DNA of 64,000 nt from Candidatus Magasanikbacteria bacterium GW2011_GWC2_37_14 (GTDB taxonomy: Bacteria; Patescibacteriota; Patescibacteriia; Magasanikbacterales; UBA922). Below, one piece after another: positions 3,992 to 56,781 of this stretch. Under the pieces are notes generated by a model. The model had not been told where the DNA came from. It saw only the letters and a program-made list of their open reading frames with translations, and searched no databases. Location of the stretch: contig LBSX01000002.1 in assembly GCA_000990355.1 (NCBI GenBank), forward strand, positions 6,000-69,999, read 5' to 3'. The position numbers were made by a program, and so were the translations under genes. The first letter of the stretch is position 1. Each line of letters opens with the position of its first letter.

Positions 3992-6583
3992 TTATATAGC
4001 AAATAAAAACCCATAACTCAAAGAAGTATAGGCCATATCTTGCCAAACAGTAAATTCATTCATATCCGGCATGCGGGCCCAAGGAGCATATTGTCGAAGG
4101 GCAGGAATATTTTTTGGGGTGGGATAAAAATTATTATACACCAAACAACCCCAAGCATCGGTAGGTTCACAATCGCCGTCATAATCTCGTGCATGGGGAC
4201 CATAAATAGGTAATCCAGGGACTGGTTTTTCTTGTTGGTCATACATAGAATTCAAATGTAGTGGAAATTCGGGATTTCTAATTCCTAATCCAGTTATCCA
4301 AGAAAGACCCAAAGGATTTTCTCCTAATTGATAATCAGCATTTAAAGAAATTGCGTCGATATATTTTTGATCTTTGGTAAAATAATATGCCATTGCAGTG
4401 CCAACAATACTTCTCATAGAGTTTGATCCCGAGCCCCAAGCAATTGCGTAATTAAAATTAGTAGAATTTTTATATTTATTTTCCATAATTTGTTCTACTT
4501 CGTCATTGCCAATTTCAATAATTCTATTTTTTACTTGTTCTTGAAAATCTCTGTCAACGTTGGTGCCATTGGCATTGCTATAACCCCAAAAAGAATAAAT
4601 ATTTGCAAACCAAGTAGGACCACGATAGGTTGGGTACAATTGTTTAAATACATTTTGATATTTTGTTTCATTGGTTAAAGCAAATAATTCTCCGGCGGCG
4701 TACATTTTTTCTCTTTCTAGTTCATTCAGTTTGTCTTCGTTACTTCTTTCTACAGGCGCTGTCGTGCCAAGGCTAGTTTGTTTTTCTGCCCAATCCCAAG
4801 CTTTCAAGGCTTTATTTTTTAAATCAGTGGCTTTGTTTTTTCCGGCGGGATAATTTTCCAAAATTCTCGCTAAATGTGCAGCTGCTCCGGCAAATTTATA
4901 AGAAGTCCATCTGTTTGGAGCATATGTCCAGTAGGGAAGTGTGTCACCCTCACATGTAGAAGAACCTGGGTGAGCATAACTCTCAACGCCAGCTCTTACT
5001 CCGCCGTCTGATTCTTGTAAAGTTTCCCATAATTTTATTCCCCATAAAGCTTCATCCAAAACATCTGGAATTTGGTTTCCACTTTCCGGAATATTTAATT
5101 GATTGTCTGTAAATTTATTAGGAAACATTTCTTGTAAGGTTGTTAAATCTTCGACAATTAGTAAATGCATTGGTCTTAAATCAAAATCACCAGCATCAAA
5201 CCAACCACCACTAATATTTATCGGGTTATTTTTGGAAGTATTTTTAGAAAATTTTTCACCAAAATCTTCCAATATATTTGTTTCAAATACTTGGTTCAGG
5301 CACATTTTATGAATCCAGTTGGTATATTTTGATTCTAGGGCTGTGCCAGCCCGTTGGTGGTACAAACCGCGAATTGCTGTATAAAAGGCTGTAAAAGCAG
5401 AATCTAGCCCTACGCTAAAGACAAGAGATCGACCAATTCCTTCTACCTCAAGATAATAATTACCTTCGTTTAAATCACTTAAATCTAATTCATATAAAAT
5501 TTCTCCACTTAGATTGTCCGATCCTAAGTTTGTTGATTTTCCCGAACTGACCAATTGTTTGGAACTGGCATTATACACTTGATAATTTAATTGTGTCGGC
5601 AATATTAAAGCACCGCCAGAACCTAACCAATAACCAACATAAGCATAGCGTTCTTTTGCTTTTAAAGAAAAACCATGTTGATTAATTTTAATAGCTTTGG
5701 CAATTTGCAAATCTTTGCCAGGCATTAAATTCCAAGAAGAAAATTGTTCATTGGAAAAATAACCAATTGTTCCGTTATAAACATATTTTTTACCTGTTGG
5801 GTTAATAAGTTCTACTGTATAATTTTGATCATTTTTTAATTCTTTAGGTAAAGTTAAATACAAAGTATGTCTTAAAACAACGTCGGCTTGGTTTTGGCCG
5901 TTATAATCTCTGTCTTCAGCATCTAATACTGCCGAAAATCGATCAATTTTTGTAGGATGAACAATATTTTTGTAATTTATATCACTAGTAGAAATAATAT
6001 TCCAATTGTTTGCATTCATTATAAAATTTAAATCAATTTCACCATCAAAAATTACTTCCGCTATTTTATTAGTAATTAGTCCAATTGAATTATTTTTTAT
6101 TACGACTTCAGAAGTAGTAAATTCACTGTCTGGATATATTTCCGAGTTGTTTATGGTTAATATTCTGTCCCAGCGATAGCCCAAATTATTAAAAGCAGTT
6201 TCATTAGCAATGTGTTTTTTTAATAAAATTCCTTTTTCACTGTATTCTAAGCGATAAACTTTATTACTATTAGCATATTTTATAATTGTAAATTCTGGGT
6301 GATGGTCAGTGTAATTTATTTCACCGGCAGTTTCGTATTTATTTAATAATTCGACATCAATATTTTCAATCCAATTCCAAGGGTATTTTAAAGAGTTAAA
6401 AATATTTTCAGATTTTATCCAATATTTTTTATTGTTCAATAATATATACACCTTTGGGTCGTTGGGAATTTTTACCAAAGCGCCATGCAGGGTGTTATTA
6501 ATAGAAAATGCTTTTGGCACAAACAATACAAAGGCAAAAACTAAGTTTAAAACAATTAAACTAAATATTTTTCTTTTATTCAT
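3992..6583 (-). CDS. Secreted glycoside hydrolase, GH9-like (alpha/alpha)6 catalytic domain, with N-terminal signal peptide and Ig-like/beta-sandwich region
   Basis: Signal peptide MNKRKIFSLIVLNLVFAFVLFVPKAFS. The GGWFDAGDFDLRP motif matches the GH9 signature GGWYDAGD. C-terminal YQLGENPLGLSWITGLG matches the GH9 C-terminal region. Confidence 0.6.
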   Translation of the reverse strand: MNKRKIFSLIVLNLVFAFVLFVPKAFSINNTLHGALVKIPNDPKVYILLNNKKYWIKSENIFNSLKYPWNWIENIDVELLNKYETAGEINYTDHHPEFTIIKYANSNKVYRLEYSEKGILLKKHIANETAFNNLGYRWDRILTINNSEIYPDSEFTTSEVVIKNNSIGLITNKIAEVIFDGEIDLNFIMNANNWNIISTSDINYKNIVHPTKIDRFSAVLDAEDRDYNGQNQADVVLRHTLYLTLPKELKNDQNYTVELINPTGKKYVYNGTIGYFSNEQFSSWNLMPGKDLQIAKAIKINQHGFSLKAKERYAYVGYWLGSGGALILPTQLNYQVYNASSKQLVSSGKSTNLGSDNLSGEILYELDLSDLNEGNYYLEVEGIGRSLVFSVGLDSAFTAFYTAIRGLYHQRAGTALESKYTNWIHKMCLNQVFETNILEDFGEKFSKNTSKNNPINISGGWFDAGDFDLRPMHLLIVEDLTTLQEMFPNKFTDNQLNIPESGNQIPDVLDEALWGIKLWETLQESDGGVRAGVESYAHPGSSTCEGDTLPYWTYAPNRWTSYKFAGAAAHLARILENYPAGKNKATDLKNKALKAWDWAEKQTSLGTTAPVERSNEDKLNELEREKMYAAGELFALTNETKYQNVFKQLYPTYRGPTWFANIYSFWGYSNANGTNVDRDFQEQVKNRIIEIGNDEVEQIMENKYKNSTNFNYAIAWGSGSNSMRSIVGTAMAYYFTKDQKYIDAISLNADYQLGENPLGLSWITGLGIRNPEFPLHLNSMYDQQEKPVPGLPIYGPHARDYDGDCEPTDAWGCLVYNNFYPTPKNIPALRQYAPWARMPDMNEFTVWQDMAYTSLSYGFLFAI

Positions 6584-6631
6584 ATCTTTTATTTTACTCT
6601 AATAAGTGAGTAAAAACAATTTATTTATAAG

Positions 6632-6672
6632 ATATAAAAAAATAATGGCCCAATAAAGCCATTATTTCATTT
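6632..6672 (-). terminator. Hairpin terminator (AATAATGGC/GCCATTATT) with a downstream T-run on the minus strand
   Basis: 9-bp perfect stem flanked by an A-run on + (a T-run on -). Confidence 0.4.
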
Positions 6673-6693
6673 ATTTTACAATTTTTGTAAAAT

Positions 6694-6806
6694 TATGCTT
6701 GAGGTTCAACTGGAGTTTCTTCTGGGGTAGGTTCTACTGGAGTTGCTGTTTCCTCGACTGGAGTAGTGGCTGTAGTTTCGTCTGTAGTAGGTTCGTCTTG
6801 CATCAT
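6694..6806 (-). CDS. Possible 37-aa acidic Thr/Pro/Glu-rich small protein
   Basis: ORF MMQDEPTTDETTATTPVEETATPVEPTPEETPVEPQA is followed by the hairpin terminator. It is low complexity and could be spurious. Confidence 0.2.
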
Positions 6807-6945
6807 ATGTGTGATACTTATGTATAAAGGCCAACTAGTGTTAGTCAGTGGAATCAATTATATCACGTTTTGATTATCTTGTCAATGATAAATTTTACCT
6901 TACACTACTTGGCTCGGGGTCACGAACGACGTTCGAACCAGCTTG

Positions 6946-7404
6946 TTAGAATTTTAAAAGACTGGCAATACACAAAACTACCCCAGCACCAAAAAGACAA
7001 CCAGCCATTTTACCAACCGCGGATTTAAGCATTGTCCTTTCTTCAGACACAAATTGAAGTCTTAATTTTTCGGCAGAATAGCCCTCAAAGATCCCCGCTA
7101 TTCCGTCTGTTATGGCATTTCCGACAACACCGCCAAGGATAGCCCCTGTTACCCCACCAAAATGACCGCCAAAGATTGCCATTATCGCTAGAATACCATT
7201 ATCTATCAATCCGAAGTATATATCCGGCAAAACGGATTTTATATTTATTTTAAAAGGTAAAAGAGAGAGAAGACAAAGTATGGACAATAAAATCAACACA
7301 AGACCTATCCAGTGACCGTCGTTAACAAGATATATGCTAACCGCACCGATTATAATACAAAGTGCAAGTATGTTAACGATAGCTAAAAAGAACTTCTTAT
7401 TCAT
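6946..7404 (-). CDS. Small membrane protein with glycine-zipper region
   Basis: TM helices plus GGHFGGVTGAILGGVVGNAITDGIAGIFEG. Separated by 2 nt from the upstream GT4 gene (operon). Confidence 0.5.
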   Translation of the reverse strand: MNKKFFLAIVNILALCIIIGAVSIYLVNDGHWIGLVLILLSILCLLSLLPFKINIKSVLPDIYFGLIDNGILAIMAIFGGHFGGVTGAILGGVVGNAITDGIAGIFEGYSAEKLRLQFVSEERTMLKSAVGKMAGCLFGAGVVLCIASLLKF

Positions 7405-7406
7405 AT

Positions 7407-8585
7407 TTATTTATTAATGTTTAATCTTTTTTTGTACTTGTTTGGCTTATTAGCAACAATCTCCTTGTATATCGTCATCAATTTTGTTGTCATGTTTTTT
7501 GAACTAAATTGTTTTGAGCTTGCAAGCGCTCCTGCGGACAGTTTTTTCCGCAGAACATCATCACTTAAAATAAGCTGAATTTTTTCAACCATTTCTTTTT
7601 CAGAATTAACCAAATACCCATTAACGCCATCCTTAATGATTTCCGGAGCTACTCCGACAGGGAACGTTACGGGAATAATTCCTTGTGACATGCCTTCAAC
7701 CATACTCAAACAAAACCCTTCATAACGGGAAGTAACCAATAATATACTACCACAGAGGGCACTCAATTTTTCTTTAATTTCTGGTTTATACAGGTTTGTA
7801 TAAACAGTGTGAAGATTTATAGACGATCTTAACCAAGAACTAATGTTTTTATTAGCCGTCATTAGAATGCTAAGTTTGGGCACATCTCTAAACGCTCGAT
7901 AAGCATAAATAAGACGATCTAGCCCTTTTAATTTGAGGGTAAACACATTTTGGCCGATACGTCCCAAATAAACAAGAAAAGGGGCTGTTGTGGTCGTTGT
8001 TGGACTGTTTTCAAACCAAAAATCTTCTATCGCATTATGGACTACATGAATTTTTGTTTCATCAATTCCGCTGTTTATCAAATCGTTCTTTACTATCTCC
8101 GAGGTTGCCACAATAGCCGTGACTCGTTTAGCGACTAAATTTTCGATATCCGCTATATCTCTTAGTGGTCTTCTGGTTTTTATATTAAGTTCATTAATAA
8201 TTTTGGCTTGTTTTAATTCGTTCCAAATTTTTCTTAATTTTGGTTCAGTTTGGTTTGTGTGAGGTGTTGCGTGGATAAAACCACTCGTTGTTGAACCAAA
8301 ATGAGAAACGATAGGGGTTGAAAAAGATAAGAATGCAATCGTTGTGTATGTAGTTCCTTGGATAATATCACAGCTCAAAACTTTATTTCTATGTTCTAAC
8401 AAACTAAAAAAGAATAATATATTGTTGAAACCTTTCATGTGGTGTGGAGCGTCTACCAATTTTACTTTAGGATAAAAATGTATCATTTCGACGCCCTCTC
8501 CTTCTAATTTGCAAGAAATCAGGCTGTTTATACAACCTGCCCCAGTTTTTAATTTTTTATCTTGGTGAATAAAGGCGATTTTCAT
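7407..8585 (-). CDS. Glycosyltransferase family 4
   Basis: C-terminal EGFCLSMVEGMSQGIIPVTFPVGVAPEIIKDGVNGYLV is the GT1/GT4 nucleotide-sugar-binding motif. Confidence 0.75.
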   Translation of the reverse strand: MKIAFIHQDKKLKTGAGCINSLISCKLEGEGVEMIHFYPKVKLVDAPHHMKGFNNILFFFSLLEHRNKVLSCDIIQGTTYTTIAFLSFSTPIVSHFGSTTSGFIHATPHTNQTEPKLRKIWNELKQAKIINELNIKTRRPLRDIADIENLVAKRVTAIVATSEIVKNDLINSGIDETKIHVVHNAIEDFWFENSPTTTTTAPFLVYLGRIGQNVFTLKLKGLDRLIYAYRAFRDVPKLSILMTANKNISSWLRSSINLHTVYTNLYKPEIKEKLSALCGSILLVTSRYEGFCLSMVEGMSQGIIPVTFPVGVAPEIIKDGVNGYLVNSEKEMVEKIQLILSDDVLRKKLSAGALASSKQFSSKNMTTKLMTIYKEIVANKPNKYKKRLNINK

Positions 8586-9865: not shown

Positions 9866-9937
9866 CTCGGGAGGTGGGGATCGAACCCACGACCATCACG
9901 TTAACAGCGTGCCGCTCTACCGCTGAGCTACTCCCGA
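9866..9937 (-). tRNA. tRNA-Asn (anticodon GTT)
   Basis: Manually folded cloverleaf. Acceptor stem TCGGGAG/CTCCCGA. D-arm GCTC-AGCGGTA-GAGC. Anticodon loop CTGTTAA (U33, GTT, A37). T-arm GTGGG-TTCGATC-CCCAC. Discriminator G. U1-A72 as in E. coli tRNA-Asn. CCA is not encoded. Confidence 0.85.
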
Positions 9938-10095: not shown

Positions 10096-10220
10096 TTGTT
10101 GGTATACTGTAAAATTGTGGTGAAATTATAACAAATAAAAAAACCAGTGTCAATAAGGATTATTAACAAGACGGCCAAAATTTTTGATTTATTTAAATTT
10201 AATGCTAAAATATATCTACT

Positions 10221-10778
10221 ATGTCAGACAATAAATATTTAAACATCGTAAACGAAGCTGGCCAAATTATTGGTGAAGATTCTCGGGAAAATATTCATAA
10301 AAATGGTTTGCTACATCGCGAAGTTCATGTTTGGTTTTATACCCCTCAAGGTGAGATTATTTTGCAACACCGTGGTAAAAATGCCGAGACTTTTCCTGAT
10401 TTGTTATATGTTACTGTGGGTGGTCATGTAGAAATAGGAGAGGATTTCGAGCAAGCCGCTCTAAAAGAAGTACAAGAAGAAACAGGTGTAAAATTAAAAA
10501 TTAGTGATTTAGTTTTGGTATATAAAGCTCACGCGCCAATTGATACTGACACTGTTACTCATAAAATAAATAATACCATAAGAGCAGTTTACGTTTATTG
10601 TTATCGAGGAGCAATCAAAGATTTACAAACAGAAAAAGGTGTAGGGCAAGGTTTTGAAGTATGGCCTTTGACAAGAATATTAAATATTTCAAATGAAGAC
10701 CGAATAAAATTAATTTTTAGTATTTTAAAAGAACCAGCTTTGGGAATTTTAAAAAAGATTCAAACAATGATAAAATAG
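10221..10778 (+). CDS. Nudix hydrolase (IDI/YfcD-like)
   Basis: Nudix box GGHVEIGEDFEQAALKEVQEETGV. Confidence 0.8.
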   Translation: MSDNKYLNIVNEAGQIIGEDSRENIHKNGLLHREVHVWFYTPQGEIILQHRGKNAETFPDLLYVTVGGHVEIGEDFEQAALKEVQEETGVKLKISDLVLVYKAHAPIDTDTVTHKINNTIRAVYVYCYRGAIKDLQTEKGVGQGFEVWPLTRILNISNEDRIKLIFSILKEPALGILKKIQTMIK

Positions 10779-47244: not shown

Positions 47245-47396
47245 AATTAGTCTACCTACTGGCAGGCAGGCTAAATATTCTACAAATACCTCAAAAAAAT
47301 GGGGTATTTGTGTTTTTTGTGGTTTTTTGCTAAAATAAAAGATAATAAATCCCTGTAAAAAGGATCTTTTTTCACTACAAATAACTAGCTAATTTT

Positions 47397-49484
47397 ATGG
47401 AAAAAATAACAAACATCAACGACGAAAAAACTATTAGAATTGGTAAATTAAACGATTTAAAAAAACTTGGAGTAAATCCTTATCCAGCCAAAGCGCATAA
47501 AAAAAATACTTTAGAAGAAGCATTAAGCATGACCGATGGTGAGAAAGTTTGTTGTGCTGGTAGAATTATTACTTTTAGAGAAATGGGTAAATTAACTTTT
47601 TGTCATTTACAAGATGCTAGTGCAAAAATGCAAATTGCCTTAAAAGATGGTGAGATTGATAAAGAAAGTTATCATTTGTTTTTAAAGAAAATTGATTCTG
47701 GTGATATTATTCAAGTAGAAGGAGAAAGATTTACTACCCACAAAGGCGAAGCTTCTATTTTAGTTAAAAAATGGACCTTGCTTAGCAAATCACTTCTACC
47801 TTTACCAGATAAATTTCATGGATTACAAGATGAAGAGATTCGTTTGCGTAAACGATATTTAGAAATGATTGACAATCCCGAAGTAAAAGATATTTTTATT
47901 CGTAAAAGTAAATTTTGGAATAGTACTCGTCAATTTTTATTAAAAGAAGGATTTTTGGAAGTCGAAACCCCAGCCTTGGAAGTAACTGCTGGTGGAGCCA
48001 GTGCTACTCCATTTGTTACACATCACAATGCCCTAGATATTGATGTTTATTTACGAATTTCTATGGGTGAACTTTGGCAAAAAAGATTAATGGTTGCTGG
48101 TTTTGAAAAAACATTTGAAATTGGTAGACAATTTAGAAATGAAGGCATGAGTCGTGAGCATTTGCAAGATTATACACAAATGGAATTTTATTGGGCCTAT
48201 GCGGATTACAACATGGGTATGGAATTAGTAGAAAAATTAATTAAATATATTGCCAAAGAAACATATAACACACTAAAATTTACGATTGGTGATTTTGGTG
48301 AAATTGATTTAGGTGAAAAATGGGAGCGTTATGATTATGTTTCTATAATTAAAGAAAAAACTGGCGTAGATGTTTTAAAGACTAATGATAAGGAATTGAA
48401 AATTGAACTTAAAAAATTAAAAGTAGCCTATGAAGAAACCGAGGGTCGTAGTAGTTTAATTGATGCTTTATGGAAATTTTGTCGCCGGTCATTAAAAGGT
48501 CCTGGTTTTTTAATTAATGTACCTGTAGCTGTGTCTCCTTTAGCCAAAAGAAAAACCGATAACCCAGAATTAACCGAAAGATTTCAAATTATTATTGCTG
48601 GTTCTGAATTGGGCAATGGTTATTCCGAATTAAATGATCCAATCGATCAAGCAGAAAGATTTAAAGAGCAGGCCAGCATGCGTGAAGCCGGGGATAATGA
48701 AGCACAAATGCATGACACAGACTTTGTAGAAGCTTTGGAACATGGTATGCCACCAACCTGTGGTTTTGGTTTTTCCGAACGTTTATTTTCGTTTTTAGAG
48801 AACAAACCAATTCGCGAGTGTGTAATTTTTCCTTTGATGAGACCAGAAAAGGGTGATTTAGAAAAAATCAGTGTTGTCAGTAAAAAAAACAATGATGTTT
48901 TATTAAAACTTCCAATTACTCGTGAGGAGGCGTTATGTGCTATAAAAAAGTATACTAAAAAACCAGCAAATTTAAATCATTACCTAGAATCAGAAGTGGT
49001 AATGCGTGCTCTAGCAACACATTTAAAACAAAACGTGGAATATTGGGGTATGCTTGGGTTACTTCATGATATTGATTGGGAAATGACTGAGGATGACTCT
49101 ATAAAACATTTGACTAAAGCTCCAGAATTGTTAAAAGGATTAGGTTTTGATGATTATTTTATTGAAATTATTTTGTCTCATGGTTATGGTTGTAATTGTG
49201 CTGGGTTGAATGATAAAAAACGTTCAAAACAATTAGAATTTGCTTTGGCCTGTGCTGAGACAGTAACTGGGTTAATTTACAGTGTATCTTTAATGAGACC
49301 GGATAAAATTGCTACTTTAGATGCTAAATCGGTAATGAAGAAATTTAAGGATAAGAAATTTGCGGCTAAAGTAGATCGTGAGGTAATTAAAGAATGTGAA
49401 AAGATCGGTTTGGGTGTTGAGGAATTTTTACAATTATCAATCGAAGCTATTCGTTCGATTGCTGGTCAAATTGGTTTAAAATAA
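47397..49484 (+). CDS. lysS: Lysyl-tRNA synthetase (class II) fused to a C-terminal YqeK-like HD phosphohydrolase domain
   Basis: The LysRS core ends at the canonical ...CVIFPLMRP. A further 210 aa follow with the HD motifs H-x-LESEVVMRALATHL...GLLHDI, ILSHGYG and FALACAETV. Confidence 0.85.
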   Translation: MEKITNINDEKTIRIGKLNDLKKLGVNPYPAKAHKKNTLEEALSMTDGEKVCCAGRIITFREMGKLTFCHLQDASAKMQIALKDGEIDKESYHLFLKKIDSGDIIQVEGERFTTHKGEASILVKKWTLLSKSLLPLPDKFHGLQDEEIRLRKRYLEMIDNPEVKDIFIRKSKFWNSTRQFLLKEGFLEVETPALEVTAGGASATPFVTHHNALDIDVYLRISMGELWQKRLMVAGFEKTFEIGRQFRNEGMSREHLQDYTQMEFYWAYADYNMGMELVEKLIKYIAKETYNTLKFTIGDFGEIDLGEKWERYDYVSIIKEKTGVDVLKTNDKELKIELKKLKVAYEETEGRSSLIDALWKFCRRSLKGPGFLINVPVAVSPLAKRKTDNPELTERFQIIIAGSELGNGYSELNDPIDQAERFKEQASMREAGDNEAQMHDTDFVEALEHGMPPTCGFGFSERLFSFLENKPIRECVIFPLMRPEKGDLEKISVVSKKNNDVLLKLPITREEALCAIKKYTKKPANLNHYLESEVVMRALATHLKQNVEYWGMLGLLHDIDWEMTEDDSIKHLTKAPELLKGLGFDDYFIEIILSHGYGCNCAGLNDKKRSKQLEFALACAETVTGLIYSVSLMRPDKIATLDAKSVMKKFKDKKFAAKVDREVIKECEKIGLGVEEFLQLSIEAIRSIAGQIGLK

Positions 49485-49489
49485 AAATT

Positions 49490-49909
49490 ATGAAAACCGT
49501 AATGATCTTTGGCACTTTTGATATTGTCCATGCTGGACATTTGCATATGTTTAAAGAAGCCAAGAAATATGGTGATTTTTTAGTCGTTGTGGTTGCACGT
49601 GATCAAAATGTAGAAATAATTAAGGGTTTAGGGTCATTACATAGTGAAGAAGAAAGATTGTTGTTTTTAGAAAATATTAAATTAATTGATCAGGTTTTGT
49701 TGGGAGACAAAACTGATGTTTATAAAGTCGTAAATGAAATTAAACCAAATATAATTGCTTTAGGTTATGATCAAAAAATTTATGTAGACAATCTTGAAAA
49801 GGCTATCACCAATTTCGGGTTGAATACTAGAATAGTACGATTAGCACCTTATCAAGAAAATCGTTTAAAAAGTAATAAAATTCGTAAATATATTGAACGT
49901 TTAGTATAG
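49490..49909 (+). CDS. Cytidylyltransferase-like nucleotidyltransferase (RibL/TagD-like, HxGH superfamily)
   Basis: IFGTFDIVHAGHLHMFKEAKKYGDFLVVVVARDQNV. Confidence 0.65.
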   Translation: MKTVMIFGTFDIVHAGHLHMFKEAKKYGDFLVVVVARDQNVEIIKGLGSLHSEEERLLFLENIKLIDQVLLGDKTDVYKVVNEIKPNIIALGYDQKIYVDNLEKAITNFGLNTRIVRLAPYQENRLKSNKIRKYIERLV

Positions 49910-49912
49910 ATT

Positions 49913-50941
49913 ATGCAAAAAGTTTTAATTGCGACAACCAACCAAGGAAAATTTAATGAAACCAAGGAATTTTTGAGTGATTTGGCTTTTAATTTTATTA
50001 GTTTAAATGATTTGAACAAAAAAATTTCTCCACCAGAAGAAAACGAAGATAATTTGGAAAAAAATGCCATGTCTAAAGCGGTTTATTATGGAGAAAAAAC
50101 CGGTTTAATTACACTTTGTGATGATTCTGGTTTGTTTGTTAAAACTTTAAAAAACTTTCCCGGTATTTATTCAGCGCGAATTGCAAAAACCGATAAAGAG
50201 CGTTGTAAAATTATTTTAGAAAAATTAAAAAATAAAAAAAGCCGTTCTGCTATTTTTGCTTTAGTTTATGCACTCTATAACCCCAGCAATCAGGATCTAT
50301 ATTTAGCCAGTGGTATGACCAAGGGCAAAATTACCGAAAAGGAAATTGGCAAAAATGGTTTTGGTTATGACCAAATTTTTTATGTAAATGAAAAAAAGAA
50401 AACTTACGCTCAAATGAAAATTCAAGAAAAAAATTCTTGTTCGCATCGAGCTAAGGCCTTAAACAAAGTAAAATATTTTTTATTAAATCAGTTTGACCCA
50501 AAACATATTGTCGTTCCTTTTGGTATTATTGTAAAAGAAGGCAAAATGTTAATATCTCTACGTAATGATCCTCATCGTCCAAAATCCCACAAAAAATGGG
50601 AAATGCCTGGTGGGGGAGTAGATTTTGGAGATAATGTAGAATCTACATTATTAAAAGAAGTAAAAGAAGAAACAGGTTATAAAATAAAAATTATTAAGCA
50701 ATTGCAAGGAATTACTGTTAAAAGTGTTGCATACCCAAATTACAAATATCAAGTTTTTTTAGTTCCTTTTGTTTGTAAAATTATTAGTGGTAAATTAGCA
50801 TTGAACAGTAATGAAGTTTTGACTACAAAATGGATTAAACCAAATGATTACAAAAATTACAAATTTTTAGAAGGTAATAATATCATGTTAAAAAAATTAT
50901 TACCGCAATTAAAACAAGTTATTAAAGATTTTAAATTATAA
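49913..50941 (+). CDS. Ham1/RdgB-type dITP/XTP pyrophosphatase fused to a C-terminal Nudix hydrolase domain
   Basis: ATTNQGKFNE, DDSGL, FGYDQIF, SHR. C-terminal Nudix box GGGVDFGDNVESTLLKEVKEETGY. Confidence 0.75.
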   Translation: MQKVLIATTNQGKFNETKEFLSDLAFNFISLNDLNKKISPPEENEDNLEKNAMSKAVYYGEKTGLITLCDDSGLFVKTLKNFPGIYSARIAKTDKERCKIILEKLKNKKSRSAIFALVYALYNPSNQDLYLASGMTKGKITEKEIGKNGFGYDQIFYVNEKKKTYAQMKIQEKNSCSHRAKALNKVKYFLLNQFDPKHIVVPFGIIVKEGKMLISLRNDPHRPKSHKKWEMPGGGVDFGDNVESTLLKEVKEETGYKIKIIKQLQGITVKSVAYPNYKYQVFLVPFVCKIISGKLALNSNEVLTTKWIKPNDYKNYKFLEGNNIMLKKLLPQLKQVIKDFKL

Positions 50942-50944
50942 AAT

Positions 50945-52183
50945 ATGCTAGATATTAAATTCATTCGTGAAAATGTGGAATTAATCAAAACTAACTGCGC
51001 TAATCGACATGTAAAAGTTGATATTGAAAAATTAGTAGAATTTGACGACAAAAGACGAGGGATGCTAAAAAGAATTGAAGATTTAAGAGCTAGTAGAAAT
51101 CAAAATTCCAAGCAAAAACCAAGTGAAGAAGAAATTGCTAAAATGAAGATTGTTGGAGAAGGCATAAAAGCCTTGGAAGTGGAAATGCAGACAATTGACG
51201 CTGAATATTTAAATTTGTTAAAACAAATTCCAAATTTATCCCATCCAGAGAGTCCAATTGGCGGTGAAGCAGATTATAAAGTAATTTGTGAAAGTGGTAA
51301 GCCACCTAAATTTGACTTTGTACCCAAAGATCATGAAACCCTAATGACAAGTTTAGATTTAATTGATTTTGAACGAGGAGCTAAAGTGTCGGGTTCTAAG
51401 TTTTATTTCGTAAAAAATGACGCTGTACGGCTCAATTTTGCCCTTTTGAGCTATGGTATGGATATTGTGAATAAATATGGCTACACCCTAATGGAAACCC
51501 CGGATTTGGCCAAAAATGAGATTTTGAGCGGTACTGGTTATAACCCTAGGGGTAATGAAACAGCAATTTATTCTGTCGAAAATACTGACCTAAGTTTAAT
51601 AGCCACTGCCGAAATCACTGTTGGTGGTTATCATGCCAATGAAGTTTTGGATTTGTCTAGTGGACCAAAAAAATATGTTGCCTTATCACATTGTTTTCGT
51701 ACCGAAGCAGGGTCCTATGGCCAGGAATCCAAAGGCCTGTATCGCGTTCATCAATTTACTAAATTAGAAATGTTTGTTTTTTGTAAACCAGAAGAAAGTG
51801 AAAAATATCACGAAGAAATATTAAATATTGAAAAAGAAATTTGTGATGGCTTAAAATTAAATTATCGCGTGATTGATATTCCGACAGGCGATTTGGGCGG
51901 GCCCGCTTATCGCAAATTTGATCTAGAAGCTTGGATGGTGATGAAAGACGGCTATGGTGAAATTACTTCTACTTCCAATTGTACAGATTATCAAGCACGA
52001 CGATTAAATATTAAATACAAAAATGAACAAGGCAATAATGAATATGTTCATACTTTAAATGGTACTGCTGTAGTCTTGAGCCGTTTTCCTCTGTCAATAG
52101 TTGAACAATACCAGCAAGCTGATGGGAGTGTTAAAATTCCTGCAGTGTTGGTAAAATATTTGGGTAAAAAAATTATTAAATAA
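50945..52183 (+). CDS. serS: Seryl-tRNA synthetase
   Basis: N-terminal coiled-coil arm. Class II motifs (FRTEAGSYG, GGPAYRKFDLEAW). Confidence 0.9.
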   Translation: MLDIKFIRENVELIKTNCANRHVKVDIEKLVEFDDKRRGMLKRIEDLRASRNQNSKQKPSEEEIAKMKIVGEGIKALEVEMQTIDAEYLNLLKQIPNLSHPESPIGGEADYKVICESGKPPKFDFVPKDHETLMTSLDLIDFERGAKVSGSKFYFVKNDAVRLNFALLSYGMDIVNKYGYTLMETPDLAKNEILSGTGYNPRGNETAIYSVENTDLSLIATAEITVGGYHANEVLDLSSGPKKYVALSHCFRTEAGSYGQESKGLYRVHQFTKLEMFVFCKPEESEKYHEEILNIEKEICDGLKLNYRVIDIPTGDLGGPAYRKFDLEAWMVMKDGYGEITSTSNCTDYQARRLNIKYKNEQGNNEYVHTLNGTAVVLSRFPLSIVEQYQQADGSVKIPAVLVKYLGKKIIK

Positions 52184-52184
52184 A

Positions 52185-52955
52185 ATGACTAAAAAAACTT
52201 TGATAATTCTACCTGGATGGGGTGGAAACAAAGAAACGTGGAAAAATTTTGCAGAACTTGCGAGCAAAGATTTTGACGTACATATTATTGAATTGCCGTG
52301 TTTTGGCGATGAACCCTGCCCAAAAACAGTTTGGGATATTGAAGATTATGTTGAGTTTGTTAAAAATAAACTTCTTGAGCGTCATTCCCGCGAAGGCGGG
52401 AATCTTAAATTGGTGAAAGATCCCCGTTTTCACGGGGATGACGCAGTGCTATTAGGTCACTCATTTGGTGGACAAGTAGCCACGGTCTTTGCTTCCAAAT
52501 ACCCAGAGATGATTGAAAAACTTATTTTAACAGCACCGGCTGTTTTCCGCCCTAAAAAAACTTTTCGACGAGTAGTTTTCAATATTGGAGCAAAATTTGG
52601 TAAATTAATTTTTAAAATTCCTTGGATAGAAAATGGTTCCCTCTGGGCCGAAAAAATTTATCACCAAGCAATTGGTGCCAAAGATTATCATGATAGTTCG
52701 GGCATTAAACGAGAAATTTTTAAAAATATTATTCGTCAAGACAGGGGAGTGGAAGCTAGTAAAATTACTATACCAACTCTAATTGTTTGGGGTACAATGG
52801 ATGGTTATCTACCAGTTGCTGATGCTAATCAATTGAATAAATTAATAAAAAACTCTAAACTTGAAATAGTTAATGGTGGAAGACATGGATTACACCTACA
52901 AATACCAGAAAAACTTTTATATTTAATAAAATCTTTTCTTGAAAAAAATATATGA
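52185..52955 (+). CDS. Alpha/beta-hydrolase fold protein with in-frame palindromic insert
   Basis: Nucleophile elbow GHSFGG. C-terminal GGRHGLHLQ His. Confidence 0.6.
   Translation: MTKKTLIILPGWGGNKETWKNFAELASKDFDVHIIELPCFGDEPCPKTVWDIEDYVEFVKNKLLERHSREGGNLKLVKDPRFHGDDAVLLGHSFGGQVATVFASKYPEMIEKLILTAPAVFRPKKTFRRVVFNIGAKFGKLIFKIPWIENGSLWAEKIYHQAIGAKDYHDSSGIKREIFKNIIRQDRGVEASKITIPTLIVWGTMDGYLPVADANQLNKLIKNSKLEIVNGGRHGLHLQIPEKLLYLIKSFLEKNI
52380..52443. repeat. Family A-like element (CGTCAT-ATTCCCGC/GCGGGAAT hairpin-ATCCCCG/CGGGGAT hairpin-ATGACG) inside the hydrolase gene
   Basis: Translated as HSREGGNLKLVKDPRFHGDD. Placed just before the GHSFGG nucleophile motif. Confidence 0.65.
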
Positions 52956-54532
52956 TTAACACCATAAACATAATTATTCTTGTTTTTTGGTTGATTAGTG
53001 CATTAGCTGATTATTTACAACTCACTTATTATTGGCAATTGAAAGAATGGCGCTGGGACAGAGCCAAAGATTTTTTATCCACTATACAAGGAAGACAATT
53101 GATTTTTCAACGACGTATCTCATTACGTATTATTTTAATTATTGTTGCACTTTTTTTACCATTCAATTTATTAATTTTTAAATTTTCTATAATTTTTATT
53201 TTGACATTAGATTTTTTAAATGCGTTTTACAAATTTTACTCTAGAAAGTTACTACATCCTGTTTTTACAAAAAAAGCCTTGTTAATTTTATTATTCACTT
53301 TCTGTTTAGAAGGTGGACTTTTCTTAAAATCACATGATTGGGAGATTCTACTCTTCTTATTAATGATAAGAGCTTTTTTACTTGGTTTTGTTATCTATTT
53401 TGTCAATTTATTTACTATTTTGGTTAAAAAATATTATATTAAAAAAGCTACAAAAAAAATAGAGAAACAAAAAAACTTAATAGTAGTTGGCATAACTGGT
53501 AGCTATGGAAAAACTACAGTAAAAAATTTCTTATATCATGTTTTAGAAAAAAAATTTAAAGTTATAAAAACGCCACGCAATATTAATACTGAAATTGGTG
53601 TAGCTAAATTTATTTTAAAAAATGATTTTAAAAATTCAGAAATTTTTATTTGTGAAATGGGTGCTTACAACGAAGGTGATATTCAAGCTATTTGCGATAT
53701 GGTACATCCGAAAATTGGTATTTTAACGGCTATAAATGAACAGCATTTATCATTATTCGGCGATATCAAAATTACACAAAAAACCAAATATGAACTTTTA
53801 AAATCTTTACCAGGAAACGGTTTGGCAATAATTAATTCGGACAACAACCTTTGTCGTGGTTTAATTCATGAATTAAATTGCGAAGTACATACTTTTGGCT
53901 ATAACGAAGAATACAAACCAACCTTTCTTCTAAAGAATATTAAATCTACAAATCAAGGAATTCTTTGTGAAGGAATTTTTTCTAATCAAACCATAATTAT
54001 TGAAGCTTCTATTGTAGGAGAACACAACTTTATGAATATAGCGCCCTGTTATTTAGTAGCAAAATTTCTAAAAATGTCCGATGATGACATAATCAAAAGT
54101 TGCAAAATTTTATCAATGCCCGATGGATCATTTCATATAAAAAATTATGGTTTGGCAATTATTATAAATGATAGTTATAATTCTAACCCAGACGGTTTTA
54201 AGGCTGCTTTGGGTGTAATGCAAAAATATTCATCACAAAAAAGAAGAATCGTAATTACTAGAGGAATGTTGGAGCTAGGTGGAAACAGTGAAGAGCTTCA
54301 TGAGTGTATTGGTGAAGAGATTTCTTTGGTAGCTGAAGAGTTAGTAATTATTACTCGTGACAATGAAGAAGCCCTGCGAAAGGGAGTTGGCACTAAATAT
54401 AAAACAGAAATAAAAAGTATTTTTGATCCAACAGATCTATTATCTTATTTTAGATCATTAAAAGACAAGGAATGTGTAATTTTATTGGAAAATCGTATGC
54501 CCATAGATATTATTAAAGAATTGGAAAAATAA
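52952..54532 (+). CDS. murF: MurF-like Mur ligase with an N-terminal polytopic membrane domain of about 170 aa
   Basis: P-loop VGITGSYGKTTVK. C-terminal IINDSYNSNPDGFKAALGVM. N-terminal region with 4-5 TM helices instead of the usual MurF N-domain. Confidence 0.7.
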   Translation: MINTINIIILVFWLISALADYLQLTYYWQLKEWRWDRAKDFLSTIQGRQLIFQRRISLRIILIIVALFLPFNLLIFKFSIIFILTLDFLNAFYKFYSRKLLHPVFTKKALLILLFTFCLEGGLFLKSHDWEILLFLLMIRAFLLGFVIYFVNLFTILVKKYYIKKATKKIEKQKNLIVVGITGSYGKTTVKNFLYHVLEKKFKVIKTPRNINTEIGVAKFILKNDFKNSEIFICEMGAYNEGDIQAICDMVHPKIGILTAINEQHLSLFGDIKITQKTKYELLKSLPGNGLAIINSDNNLCRGLIHELNCEVHTFGYNEEYKPTFLLKNIKSTNQGILCEGIFSNQTIIIEASIVGEHNFMNIAPCYLVAKFLKMSDDDIIKSCKILSMPDGSFHIKNYGLAIIINDSYNSNPDGFKAALGVMQKYSSQKRRIVITRGMLELGGNSEELHECIGEEISLVAEELVIITRDNEEALRKGVGTKYKTEIKSIFDPTDLLSYFRSLKDKECVILLENRMPIDIIKELEK

Positions 54533-55782: not shown

Positions 55783-56776
55783 AATAGAAAAAATAACAAA
55801 TCATGAAATTTGGGAAAATTTCAATTTACAACAACTGAACACTTTGTTTGTCCAGTCTGTCCAATATGGTAAATTTTATGAAAAAATTGGTGAACAATTT
55901 TGGATTTTTGGTATTTTTGAAAATAATATTTTAATTGGGGGGTCGTTAGTAGTAACTGTCCATGCTAGACGAGGAAATTTTCTTTACTTACCCTATGGTC
56001 CAATTGGTGAAAGGGGATTAAAAGATTTTTTTTCTTATTTAAAAGAATTTGCTAAAAAAAATAATTATGACTTTATTAGAGTTAGTCCTTTTATAGAAGA
56101 TTCAATAAAAAATAAAGAATTATACAAAAATTTGGGTTTTAGATCATCCCCAATACACGTATTAGCCGAAACAACCTGGTTATTAGATTTAGCCACAACT
56201 CAAGAAGAATTATTACAGCAAATGGACAAAACCCATCGTTATTTAATTAAGCGTTGTGAAAAAGAAGGGGTAAAAATTGAAAAATCCGATGATATTAATA
56301 AATTTAATAAATTACATGATGAAACAGCCAAAAGACATAAATTTATTAGATTTTCTAATAAATACATAACTAATGAATTCAATTCTTTTACTTTAAAAGA
56401 TCAATGTTTAATATTTAATGGTTTTTTGTCAACAAACGAATTAGATTCTTCAGCTGTAATTATTTATTATGGTAATATGGCCGCCTACAGACATGGTGCT
56501 TCATTAAATTTAAATCACAAAATTTCAACCTCGTATTTACTCCAATGGGAAGCTATAAAAGAAGCAAAAAAAAGAGGAATAAAATATTATAATTTTTGGG
56601 GTATTGCCCCAGAAAATGCTAAAAAAAACCACCCATTTAAAGGTATCACTCATTTTAAAAAAGGTTTTGGTGGTTATCAGAAAGATCTGTTACACTGTCA
56701 AGATTTACCAATTTCTTATAAATATTGCTTTGCCTGGATTATAGAAACATTGCGAAGAATTAAAAGAAGATTTTAA
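55775..56776 (+). CDS. FemAB-family peptidyltransferase (peptidoglycan interpeptide bridge formation)
   Basis: Tandem GNAT-like FemABX architecture. YGNMAAYRHGASL...YNFWGI. Confidence 0.65.
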   Translation: MYKIEKITNHEIWENFNLQQLNTLFVQSVQYGKFYEKIGEQFWIFGIFENNILIGGSLVVTVHARRGNFLYLPYGPIGERGLKDFFSYLKEFAKKNNYDFIRVSPFIEDSIKNKELYKNLGFRSSPIHVLAETTWLLDLATTQEELLQQMDKTHRYLIKRCEKEGVKIEKSDDINKFNKLHDETAKRHKFIRFSNKYITNEFNSFTLKDQCLIFNGFLSTNELDSSAVIIYYGNMAAYRHGASLNLNHKISTSYLLQWEAIKEAKKRGIKYYNFWGIAPENAKKNHPFKGITHFKKGFGGYQKDLLHCQDLPISYKYCFAWIIETLRRIKRRF

Positions 56777-56781
56777 TATTT

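Follow-up and report, generated by a model that had tools for sequence, protein, structure and literature searches.

A single 342-aa polypeptide encoded in a genome of Candidatus Magasanikbacteria carries a complete Ham1/RdgB domain (residues 4–187) and a complete Nudix domain (residues 204–320), both with conserved catalytic sites and both with supported folds. This Ham1-Nudix fusion is genuine and clade-conserved; public databases already contain the proteins under partial names. We favor, with somewhat better than even confidence, the explanation that the fusion is a rigid bifunctional house-cleaning pyrophosphatase encoded beside a RibL-type FAD synthase in a housekeeping operon. In this scheme, the RdgB/Ham1 domain would cleave the deaminated purine nucleotides (d)ITP and XTP into PPi and the monophosphate, and the Nudix domain, as a member of the MutT/NudG/MutT2 type, would hydrolyze a second class of aberrant nucleotide. 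The substrates we infer are least certain for the Nudix half, for which oxidized or non-canonical (d)NTPs, e.g., 8-oxo-(d)GTP, are our best guess. The 139-aa nucleotidyltransferase would convert FMN to FAD, and, in an organism that scavenges nucleotides, both pyrophosphatase activities would safeguard replication and transcription as well as nucleotide-dependent cofactor synthesis. Parcubacteria were described as lacking nucleotide biosynthesis (PMC4508563). Ultra-small symbionts scavenge nucleotides and cannot make them, and therefore deaminated and oxidized nucleotides need to be removed. If our explanation is true, the fusion would be a compact, clade-specific answer to this need, with two clean-up chemistries on one polypeptide, and a new bifunctional architecture for two well-studied enzyme families. 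Rather than a new kind of system, it represents a modest variant of known enzymes. Current understanding is not overturned, as both the domains with their chemistry and the concept of pool sanitation are well established.

The window, i.e., the whole 64-kb stretch of DNA that was analyzed, comes from a member of the Patescibacteria/CPR, a groundwater bacterium with a tiny genome. The relevant features are as follows.

47281–47312, + strand: terminator-like hairpin with a 13-bp stem and a T-run, 3′ of greA
47397–49484, + strand: lysS, class II lysyl-tRNA synthetase (LysRS) with a C-terminal HD/HDIG extension (NF001756, TIGR00277)
49490–49909, + strand: HxGH nucleotidyltransferase, 139 aa (PF01467, PDB 3GLV)
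49913–50941, + strand: Ham1-Nudix fusion ORF, 342 aa (PF01725 and PF00293)
49913–50473, + strand: Ham1/RdgB domain of the fusion, residues 1–187, predicted (d)ITP/XTP pyrophosphatase
50474–50521, + strand: Ham1-to-Nudix junction, residues 188–203 (..YFLLNQFDPKHIVVPF)
50522–50872, + strand: Nudix domain of the fusion, residues 204–320, with the Nudix box at 50612–50680 (G234..Y256)
50873–50941, + strand: C-terminal helix of the Nudix domain, residues 321–342, with N322, and the stop codon
50945–52183, + strand: serS, seryl-tRNA synthetase, 3 nt 3′ of the fusion and included in the same conserved string of genes
52185–52955, + strand: alpha/beta-hydrolase, continuing the conserved co-directional block
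52952–54532, + strand: Mur ligase, likewise continuing the block

The two ORFs called in the sequence-only reading, of 139 and 342 aa, were recovered on the + strand with exactly these limits. All motifs it had quoted are present in the fusion protein, namely ATTNQGK (residues 7–13), DDSGL (70–74), FGYDQIF (150–156), SHR (177–179), and the Nudix box (G234..Y256). The intergenic distances between lysS, the nucleotidyltransferase gene, the fusion gene, and serS are only 5, 3, and 3 nt. The hairpin at 47281–47312 is the top terminator-like site between 44 and 58 kb, and a scan of this region revealed no comparable site between lysS and the Mur-ligase gene; it is likely the upstream limit of a transcription unit led by lysS. 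A search against Rfam detected no riboswitch or leader within the block, the sole match in the 64-kb window being a tRNA at 9866–9937. From its sequence context, the Ham1-Nudix gene appears to sit inside a long co-directional housekeeping operon that extends from lysS to cell-wall genes.

Domain searches with profile HMMs, suggested previously as a check, gave scores far past chance for PF01725 (Ham1p_like, E = 2.7e-53) and PF00293 (NUDIX, E = 6.6e-13) in the 342-aa protein and for PF01467 (CTP_transf_like, E = 7.2e-20) in the 139-aa protein. The distribution of the Ham1-Nudix architecture was also analyzed, and it was found in at least 120 clusters, nearly all of them from Magasanikbacteria or other Patescibacteria. 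The best-scoring 120 homologous clusters (340–367 aa, 41–85% identity) all contain both Pfam domains, and a look-up of cluster members gave names from Magasanikbacteria or the "Patescibacteria group" and none beyond. The fusion is no assembly artifact: exactly the same 342-aa protein is encoded by 10 contigs, among which are sequences from a JGI metagenome and from an independent Logan assembly. A single ORF that arose by an assembly or frameshift artifact joining two genes would fit a related locus (L089) in which Ham1 and Nudix are encoded by two genes (202 and 175 aa, respectively). The break in L089, however, falls on a masked/N run (translated as XXXX), the same fused ORF occurs on 10 contigs from independent projects, and more than 120 clusters have this fused organization and no indels at the junction, leaving the artifact a practically negligible probability. 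Because of the masked/N run at its break, L089 was also dropped as a natural split of the fusion.

Among 40 homologs, the mean pairwise identity was equal in both halves (0.49 for Ham1 and 0.49 for Nudix). The junction (residues 188–203) contained no indels in the 40 sequences, and K197, V200, V201, and P202 were highly conserved. In an AlphaFold model of the fusion (pLDDT 94.5, pTM 0.80, pLDDT of at least 90 at the junction), the last Ham1 helix continues directly into the first Nudix strand and a flexible linker is absent; according to this model, the two halves are rigidly joined. Known RdgB/Ham1/ITPA enzymes (PF01725, TIGR00042), such as E. coli RdgB (2Q16), S. aureus Ham1 (4BNQ), and the C. 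burnetii protein (3TQU), occur as stand-alone proteins with a length of about 200 aa, whereas the C-terminal helix of the Magasanikbacteria protein runs without a linker into the Nudix domain. A structure search yielded no solved structure that covers both domains, and literature searches found no account of any Ham1/RdgB-Nudix/MutT fusion.

The Ham1 half scored 181.1 bits with PF01725 (cut-off 22.5; residues 4–187) and 166.4 bits with the equivalog model TIGR00042, which is above the cut-off of 145.35. The active site of E. coli RdgB comprises the triphosphate-binding residues K13, K53, and R87, the acidic residues E41 and D68/D69, and the FGYD and SHR motifs (PMC3899018). All triphosphate-, metal-, and base-site residues were matched in the fusion protein (K13, E43, K55, D70/D71, R89, F150-G-Y-D153, and S177-H-R179). 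K13, E43, K55, D71, and R179 were invariant in the 40 homologs, and the other RdgB-site residues were invariant or nearly so. Structure comparison of the model confirmed the presence of a Ham1/Maf-type fold. In sequence and fold, the Ham1 half thus passed all tests for an ITP/XTP pyrophosphatase, which is its predicted activity.

Ham1-like proteins of the KomBC (Kongming) system were found among the structural neighbors of the Ham1 half, and the Nudix half matched the PADLOC candidate model PDC-S07 (E = 2.4e-19). These matches would fit a role of the Nudix half or of the whole fusion in anti-phage defense or nucleotide signaling. Against such a role, no catalytic residue has been lost from the Ham1 half, which is nearer to RdgB (35–37% identity) than to KomB/C (19–22%), and the gene context is a clade-conserved core housekeeping operon with aminoacyl-tRNA synthetase and cell-wall genes. 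PDC-S07 is an unvalidated candidate and a generic MutT-like Nudix model, and PADLOC returned nothing for the nucleotidyltransferase and the HD domain of LysRS, the two other proteins scanned. We set a defense function aside as highly improbable, since the sole PADLOC match was this generic Nudix candidate model.

Structure comparison of the model revealed an alpha/beta/alpha Nudix fold in the C-terminal half, in agreement with the PF00293 match to residues 204–320. The Nudix box of the window's protein (G234-x5-D240-x7-K248-E-V-x-E-E-x-G-Y256) deviates from the canonical Glu and Arg at D240 and K248, but the family consensus is canonical, with E240 in 36 and R248 in 34 of the 40 homologs. The catalytic glutamates E249, E252, and E253 and E301, the equivalent of MutT E98, were invariant in all 40 sequences. 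The domain also contains a family-specific motif (R217-N-D-P..H226..W229-E-x-P-G-G), and Q280 and C288 are invariant in the family. The substrate-site residues of E. coli MutT outside the box are K39, E98, and N119. In an alignment to the MutT sequence, which covered the full length of the Nudix half with a probability of 97.8%, the N119 equivalent (N322) was Asn in 31 and Asp in 7 of 40 homologs, and the K39 equivalent (residue 235) was variable among them. The best solved relatives by profile were MutT (3hhj, 1.5e-13), BdRppH, CTPase/NudG, MutT2, and NudI.

By sequence and modeled structure, the Nudix half falls among the small Nudix enzymes of MutT/NudG/MutT2/RppH-like type. It shares with MutT, NudG, NudI, mycobacterial MutT2, and BdRppH the Nudix fold, a WEFPGG-type motif before the box, and a size of about 140 aa, and with the MutT-clade enzymes the box that is canonical in most family members and the equivalents of E98, W104, and, mostly, N119. 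It differs from the latter by the RNDPHRP..H..W motif, the invariant Q280 and C288, the lack of conservation at the K39 position, and the fused Ham1 domain. It remained under the cut-offs of every curated equivalog model and is classed as MutT-like and not as MutT, because it scored below the cut-offs of TIGR00586 (34.0 versus 97.9 bits) and NF008044 (31.1 versus 148 bits). Comparison by eye with sub-family rules revealed no clean fit to the CoA-type motif upstream of the box or, downstream of the box, to the proline of the ADP-ribose rule or the tyrosine of the Ap4A rule. As none of them fitted cleanly, these signature rules were left out as evidence.

The sequence-only reading had proposed two non-canonical-NTP pyrophosphatases in one polypeptide. 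The proposal is supported by sequence and fold for the Ham1 half, and a Nudix fold is present, but such an activity of the Nudix half is not established: its MutT score is 34 bits against a cut-off of 97.9, and its nearest structures include an RNA pyrophosphohydrolase and Ap4A/Ap6A hydrolases in addition to MutT/MutT2/NudI. Alternatively, the Nudix half might act as an RppH-type RNA 5′-pyrophosphohydrolase that converts 5′-triphosphate RNA to monophosphate RNA and thereby triggers decay, so that the fusion would join pool cleaning to RNA turnover. BdRppH is a MutT-like protein that hydrolyzes GTP as well, and for this reason the similarity to BdRppH does not discriminate between the two functions. 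The RppH models of NCBIfam gave only 28–29 bits against cut-offs of 116–118, and it is not obvious why an enzyme acting on RNA ends should be rigidly joined to an NTPase for small molecules. We regard the RppH-type function as rather unlikely, and the consolidated role in nucleotide sanitation suggested earlier is the most parsimonious reading.

A functional precedent for pairing the Ham1 and Nudix families is provided by mammalian ITPA, a Ham1-family ITPase, and NUDT16, a Nudix enzyme, which jointly clear (d)ITP and (d)IDP from the pools (PMC2875033, PMC2919730). These are separate genes and proteins, whereas the domains are fused in Magasanikbacteria. NUDT16 was absent among the listed sequence and structure matches of the Nudix half, and no evidence pointed to IDP specificity.

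In one sublineage (P0242, P0247, and P0361; 233–235 aa), the Ham1 catalytic core is deleted and the Nudix half is intact, and in a related lineage (L091) a stand-alone Nudix gene alone is located between lysS and serS. Judged from these sequences, the two halves are not obligately coupled. Because the Ham1 core has been lost in one sublineage, this natural example lends itself to studying why enzymes of nucleotide house-cleaning become fused.

The sequence-only reading had further grouped the two ORFs with lysS into a coherent three-gene unit containing an Ap4A hydrolase domain. The pair of nucleotidyltransferase and fusion genes is indeed conserved and so is a co-directional block around it, but this block is much longer, comprising lysS, the nucleotidyltransferase gene, the Ham1-Nudix gene, serS, and the genes for the hydrolase, the Mur ligase, DegT, and FemAB, and lysS with an HD domain is not a constant part of it. 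LysRS consists of a class II core (residues 1–485; NF001756, 537 versus 468 bits) and an extension of about 210 aa encoded at about 48852–49481, which scored above the cut-off of the HDIG model TIGR00277. In 10 distinct syntenic loci, the extension is an HD domain in three (the window's own locus, L086, and L088) and a DUF2000 domain in L084, and it is missing in six (L003, L083, L085, L087, L089, and L091).

The similarity of this extension to Ap4A hydrolases is not significant. Comparison of a three-sequence HD profile with solved structures gave YqeK Ap4A hydrolases as the sole matches, with E-values of 0.044, 0.22, and 0.63 that are not significant. The YqeK family model did not match the LysRS HD domain at E ≤ 1, only the generic HDIG model did, and its longest NCBIfam match was to an HD domain fused to archaeal Trm56. 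Modeling of the domain from its sequence alone with AlphaFold gave a pLDDT of 40, too low for use. Like the YqeK HD symmetrical Ap4A hydrolases (2OGI, 8JJA, 8WMY), the extension is an HD/HDIG domain of about 200 aa; in contrast to YqeK, it is an optional add-on in the clade, with E-values of only 0.04–0.6 and no match to the family model.

The vicinity of two aminoacyl-tRNA synthetase genes also bears on the Nudix half, which might be an asymmetric Ap4A/ApnN hydrolase clearing the Ap4A formed as a by-product by LysRS and SerRS, with the LysRS HD domain, where present, as a second, YqeK-like enzyme. We consider this unlikely. The YqeK matches span only the generic H..HD region, the HD domain is missing from most syntenic loci, and the sequence profile of the Nudix half scores MutT-type proteins above Ap4A hydrolases. 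The gene order of one clade is weak evidence of function, and more remote stand-alone Nudix relatives are located in unrelated contexts.

The 139-aa protein had been described as a RibL/TagD-like HxGH nucleotidyltransferase. This assignment was confirmed and could be narrowed to RibL-like: the protein contains the HxGH motif as H14-A-G-H17 and matches PDB 3GLV end to end (residues 3–138, E = 1.7e-29), whereas the match to TagD covers residues 1–75 only (E = 1.2e-12) and the score with the TagD glycerol-3-phosphate cytidylyltransferase model TIGR01518 (55.3 bits) is below its cut-off (165.4). Entry 3GLV was deposited only as "lipopolysaccharide core biosynthesis protein". Homologs form 870 clusters, for which NCBI/UniRef use the name "FAD synthase", as they do for the identical protein. 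Gene callers place the start codon at 49502 (135 aa), but the family and 3GLV alignments favor the start at 49490 (139 aa).

On the basis of these similarities, the protein is probably an archaeal RibL-type FMN adenylyltransferase (FAD synthase). It resembles M. jannaschii RibL (MJ1179), the Entamoeba enzyme EhFADS, and 3GLV of T. volcanium in size and HxGH motif, and it has a degenerate ISSTxxR-like C-terminal motif as in the archaeal RibL group. The conserved cysteine pair of archaeal RibL is missing; like EhFADS, the 139-aa protein has no cysteine at all. The cysteine-free RibL-type enzyme of Entamoeba is an active, ATP-specific FAD synthase (PMC11423594). RibL has been called archaeal and "not in Bacteria" (PMC5397151); unlike RibL as described, the protein reported here occurs in a bacterium, and its FAD-synthase activity is predicted.

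In every complete fusion locus examined, the nucleotidyltransferase gene is located directly upstream of the fusion gene, with 3-nt gaps or 4-nt overlaps. The gene order is conserved in L001–L003 and L083–L088, and the nucleotidyltransferase gene is kept in L090, where the Ham1 core is deleted. A RibL-type nucleotidyltransferase was found near Ham1 in none of 78 Ham1 loci from other lineages. In a scan of species-representative genomes with the full fusion alignment, the patterns fell in the Ham1 half and the matches were mostly ordinary rdgB, which were reused as background control; two loci contained both domain types, one fused (L003) and one unfused (L004). The unfused Ham1-nucleotidyltransferase-Nudix cluster of L004 was ruled out as independent support for a module, as Ham1 was located within 500 nt in 0 of 80 metagenomic relatives of its nucleotidyltransferase (Nudix in 5 of 80). 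As far as can be read from these sequences, the linkage is an inherited gene order of one clade.

A putative functional coupling of the nucleotidyltransferase and the fusion might reflect flavin metabolism, in which the RibL-type enzyme makes FAD, the Ham1 half removes ITP and XTP to prevent wrong flavin dinucleotides, and the Nudix half acts as a pyrophosphatase that degrades FAD or mis-made dinucleotides to FMN. The adjacency of the genes in all fusion loci and the persistence of the nucleotidyltransferase gene despite the deletion of the Ham1 core in L090 are in line with such a function, as is the promiscuity of archaeal RibL for NTP donors (ATP, CTP 40%, GTP 10%; PMC11423594). Parcubacteria need FAD, as they retain the FAD-dependent enzymes MurB and TrxB, although they lack ribF/ribKL (PMC4508563), and pairings of FAD synthetase and FAD pyrophosphatase are reported from plants (PMC9678776). 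However, the Nudix half resembles the small NTP type and not the dinucleotide, ADP-ribose, or NADH types, its matches to NudC, ADPRase, and NadM-Nudix being much weaker. In addition, the linkage is limited to one clade and not reproduced elsewhere, and the FAD-synthase activity is itself a prediction. We therefore judge this explanation of the coupling distinctly unlikely, and we give even less credence to a full flavin-cofactor fidelity and salvage module in which the Nudix half returns scavenged FAD or mis-made dinucleotides to FMN. If true, such a module would explain how symbionts reported to be without FAD synthase or riboflavin kinase obtain both flavin cofactors. For the preferred explanation, a house-cleaning pyrophosphatase encoded next to a RibL-type FAD synthase, the latter enzyme bears on a smaller puzzle, namely the supply of FAD to MurB and TrxB in Parcubacteria-like organisms said to be without FAD synthase. 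The combination of an HxGH nucleotidyltransferase with a Nudix domain is also found in NadM-Nudix (NMN adenylyltransferase/ADP-ribose pyrophosphatase, PDB 2QJT).

The window derives from a Candidatus Magasanikbacteria (Patescibacteria/CPR) genome in the GW2011 groundwater set; the Ham1-Nudix fusion (P0001) and the nucleotidyltransferase (NTase, P0121) each share 100% identity with a protein of this organism. Both belong to a closely spaced series of forward-strand genes in the window, which were located in the ORF listing:

47281-47312: strong terminator-like hairpin, 3' of greA
47397-49484 (+): lysS
49490-49909 (+): NTase, 139 aa
49913-50941 (+): Ham1-Nudix fusion, 342 aa, between NTase and serS
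50945-52183 (+): serS

The intergenic distances from lysS to serS are 5, 3, and 3 nt. As a hairpin follows greA and no strong terminator-like hairpin was found between lysS and the Mur ligase gene, the block from lysS onward probably forms one operon starting at lysS. Rfam searches of the whole window at the gathering threshold revealed neither a riboswitch nor a T-box upstream of lysS or serS; the sole match in the 64 kb was a lone tRNA gene at 9866-9937 (-). GC skew is positive from ~10 kb to ~58 kb and negative beyond, with a cumulative maximum near 56-58 kb; this switch at ~56000-60000 may represent a coding-strand change or a replication landmark.

All motifs quoted in the sequence-only reading were present in the NTase and fusion ORFs, whose coordinates were confirmed, and its claim of a complete Ham1 and a complete Nudix domain in one polypeptide was borne out by Pfam matches to Ham1p_like (residues 4-187, E=2.7e-53) and NUDIX (residues 204-320, E=6.6e-13). 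The fusion is genuine and an assembly artefact is excluded. The possibility that the halves are separate ORFs fails, since the identical 342-aa product occurs on 10 contigs from independent projects, among them JGI 3300025308 and Logan SRR3309152. At the 90% identity level, 224 clusters match the fusion with E<=1e-5, and the best 120 of these all contain both Pfam domains (340-367 aa, 41-85% identity). In the 40-sequence fusion alignment, mean pairwise identity is equal in the Ham1 and Nudix halves (0.49 and 0.49), and the junction (residues 183-205) is free of indels, with K197, V200, V201, and P202 conserved. In an AlphaFold model based on this alignment (pLDDT 94.5, pTM 0.80), the final Ham1 helix (178-194) runs directly into the opening Nudix strand (197-208), and we infer from the model that the fusion is a rigid two-domain protein. 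Among solved structures, no chain spans both domains.

The fusion passed the RdgB/HAM1 equivalog TIGR00042 (166.4 versus a cut-off of 145.35 bits), but scored far below every curated cut-off of the MutT, NudI, NudG, RppH, NudC, and ADP-ribose-type equivalogs. Of the two non-canonical-NTP pyrophosphatases initially proposed, the Ham1 part was thus supported as a prediction and the Nudix part was not established. The Nudix box reads G234-x5-D240-x7-K248-E-V-x-E-E-x-G-Y256. The family consensus is canonical, with E in 36/40 sequences at the position of D240 and R in 34/40 at that of K248; E249, E252, and E253 are invariant, as are the family-specific residues R217, P220, H226, W229, E230, Q280, C288, and E301. 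A profile of the Nudix half aligned over the full length with E. coli MutT (probability 97.8%), pairing E301/E98, W307/W104, and N322/N119. Residue 322 is Asn in 31 and Asp in 7 of the 40 sequences; the position matching K39 varies. When the profile was compared with solved structures, MutT 3HHJ (1.5e-13) and BdRppH (5.3e-13) scored best, followed by CDP-Chase, a putative CTPase, MutT2, NudG, and NudI. At E<=1e-30, an exhaustive Nudix-only profile search over 1.84 billion representatives yielded no more than 37 clusters: ~20 are full-length fusions, some others measure 233-285 aa, and a few are stand-alone proteins. From these there is a continuum to thousands of typical Nudix proteins of ~140 aa. 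Together, the box, the MutT alignment, the nearest solved relatives, and the profile search place this half among the Nudix hydrolases, in the MutT-like group of small NTPases, a placement that does not by itself assign a substrate. An RppH-type RNA pyrophosphohydrolase, with BdRppH among the best relatives and the RppH equivalog far from reached, is unlikely, and a defence-related role, suggested by a PADLOC PDC-S07 match, appears far-fetched.

As natural variants demonstrate, selection acts on the Nudix function independently of Ham1. In three clusters of 233-235 aa (P0242, P0247, P0361), one common internal deletion has removed the Ham1 catalytic core; what remains is the first ~38 residues, the helix that connects the domains, and an intact Nudix half. 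This sublineage represents a natural domain-loss experiment. At L090 (P0242, 1111-1818), the sole such locus examined, the NTase gene is still immediately upstream. Locus L091 (Patescibacteria GCA_018971545.1) carries only a 144-aa Nudix gene with a similar pre-box motif (4001-4435) between lysS and serS, an arrangement without Ham1 and NTase genes that may be ancestral or derived. More distant stand-alone Nudix relatives have unrelated gene contexts. An apparent Ham1/Nudix split at locus L089 was discounted because the break falls on a masked run.

The NTase matched CTP_transf_like (E=7.2e-20), and none of the curated equivalog cut-offs for RfaE domain II, TagD, CoaD, NadR, and RibF was reached. 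Of the suggested RibL/TagD likeness, the RibL side was substantiated: PDB 3GLV of Thermoplasma volcanium aligned end to end (E=1.7e-29), whereas the TagD match was limited to residues 1-75 (E=1.2e-12). Archaeal RibL uses ATP, CTP (40%), and GTP (10%) as donors and has two conserved cysteines (PMC11423594); the window protein has none, like the Cys-free RibL-type enzyme of Entamoeba, an active, ATP-specific FAD synthase (PMC11423594). Homologues comprise 870 clusters, and source databases name the identical protein 'FAD synthase'. It is best read as a putative RibL-type FMN adenylyltransferase. According to published descriptions, RibL is missing from Bacteria (PMC5397151), and Parcubacteria have neither ribF/ribKL nor FAD synthase yet retain the FAD-dependent MurB and TrxB (PMC4508563); in contrast, every source name given among the best 120 of the 870 clusters is that of Magasanikbacteria, Parcubacteria, or other Patescibacteria. 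A FAD or dinucleotide pyrophosphatase linked to the RibL-type enzyme is a very unlikely identity for the Nudix half, given the low ADP-ribose-type scores.

We rather favour, with some reservation, a bifunctional house-cleaning pyrophosphatase whose gene would share a transcript with that of a RibL-type FAD synthase, in an organism that lives by scavenging. The Ham1 domain would clear (d)ITP/XTP, and the MutT-like Nudix domain would act on a second class of aberrant (d)NTP, which may be oxidised purines. Neither domain is new, nor is its chemistry, and the fusion and NTase proteins have been public since the release of the source genome under partial names, NCBI giving the fusion clusters no name beyond 'RdgB/HAM1 family non-canonical purine NTP pyrophosphatase'. 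The literature searched contained no description of a Ham1/RdgB-Nudix/MutT fusion; mammalian ITPA and NUDT16 offer a functional precedent for the pairing, but as separate proteins (PMC2875033, PMC2919730).

Nine related loci (41-54% protein identity) share, as far as each reaches, the order lysS, NTase (135-144 aa), Ham1-Nudix, serS, alpha/beta-hydrolase, Mur ligase, DegT, FemAB, a few having small extra ORFs flanking serS. In L083 and L086 the NTase and fusion genes overlap by 4 nt. Extra stand-alone Nudix genes lie inside the operon in L083 (8047-8523, after serS) and L089 (2411-2953, between lysS and NTase). A patescibacterial locus with a different context, L004, contains an unfused gene set resembling a nucleotide-hydrolase island, flanked by sufS-like and nifU genes:

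4627-7506 of JADFMT010000010.1: ASCH, Nudix (171 aa), Nudix (154 aa), Ham1 (205 aa), NTase (147 aa), Nudix (141 aa)

It was rejected as independent support for the module, being a one-off: in 80 metagenomic relatives, Ham1 was adjacent to the L004-type NTase in none and Nudix in five. Around 78 ordinary Ham1 loci of diverse bacteria and archaea, an NTase of the window's type occurred within 6 kb in none and any Nudix in two. Thus, the NTase/Ham1/Nudix linkage is documented for a single clade, in which NTase and fusion may be functionally coupled.

The LysRS add-on is interchangeable within the clade, being HD/HDIG (~210 aa), DUF2000 (PF09391), or absent (L003, L083, L085, L087, L089, L091):

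48852-49481 (+), window: HD/HDIG extension of LysRS
about 4110-4562, L084: DUF2000 (PF09391) extension of LysRS

A coherent three-gene unit including the HD domain did not hold up, since HD occurs only in the window locus, L086, and L088, and the conserved block is longer, from lysS to FemAB. The HD domain had no significant match among solved structures, and a three-sequence profile retrieved only YqeK Ap4A hydrolases, weakly (E=0.044-0.63) and in the generic H..HD stretch. NCBIfam gave only HDIG besides weak matches to RNase Y and the archaeal Trm56-attached HD. On these results, the Ap4A label is a guess. The longest NCBIfam match was PRK12703, the HD domain that in archaea is joined to the tRNA methyltransferase Trm56; it hints at a tRNA-related rather than an Ap4A-related role. 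An Ap4A hydrolase in the Nudix half, linked to the flanking synthetases, is quite unlikely compared with a MutT-like enzyme.

A second Nudix ORF of the window (10209-10775 (+), 189 aa, box GHVEIGEDFEQAALKEVQEETGV) matched isopentenyl-diphosphate isomerase type 1 and YfcD-like models best, both below cut-off (53.9 bits versus 127). The full Patescibacteria-typical string greA-lysS-NTase-Ham1Nudix-serS is also present at locus L003, whose contig (CAYIHE010000017.1) was assigned to an 'uncultured Gammaproteobacteria' MAG and is probably misbinned; the same may hold true for cluster P0065, labelled Candidatus Kapabacteria.
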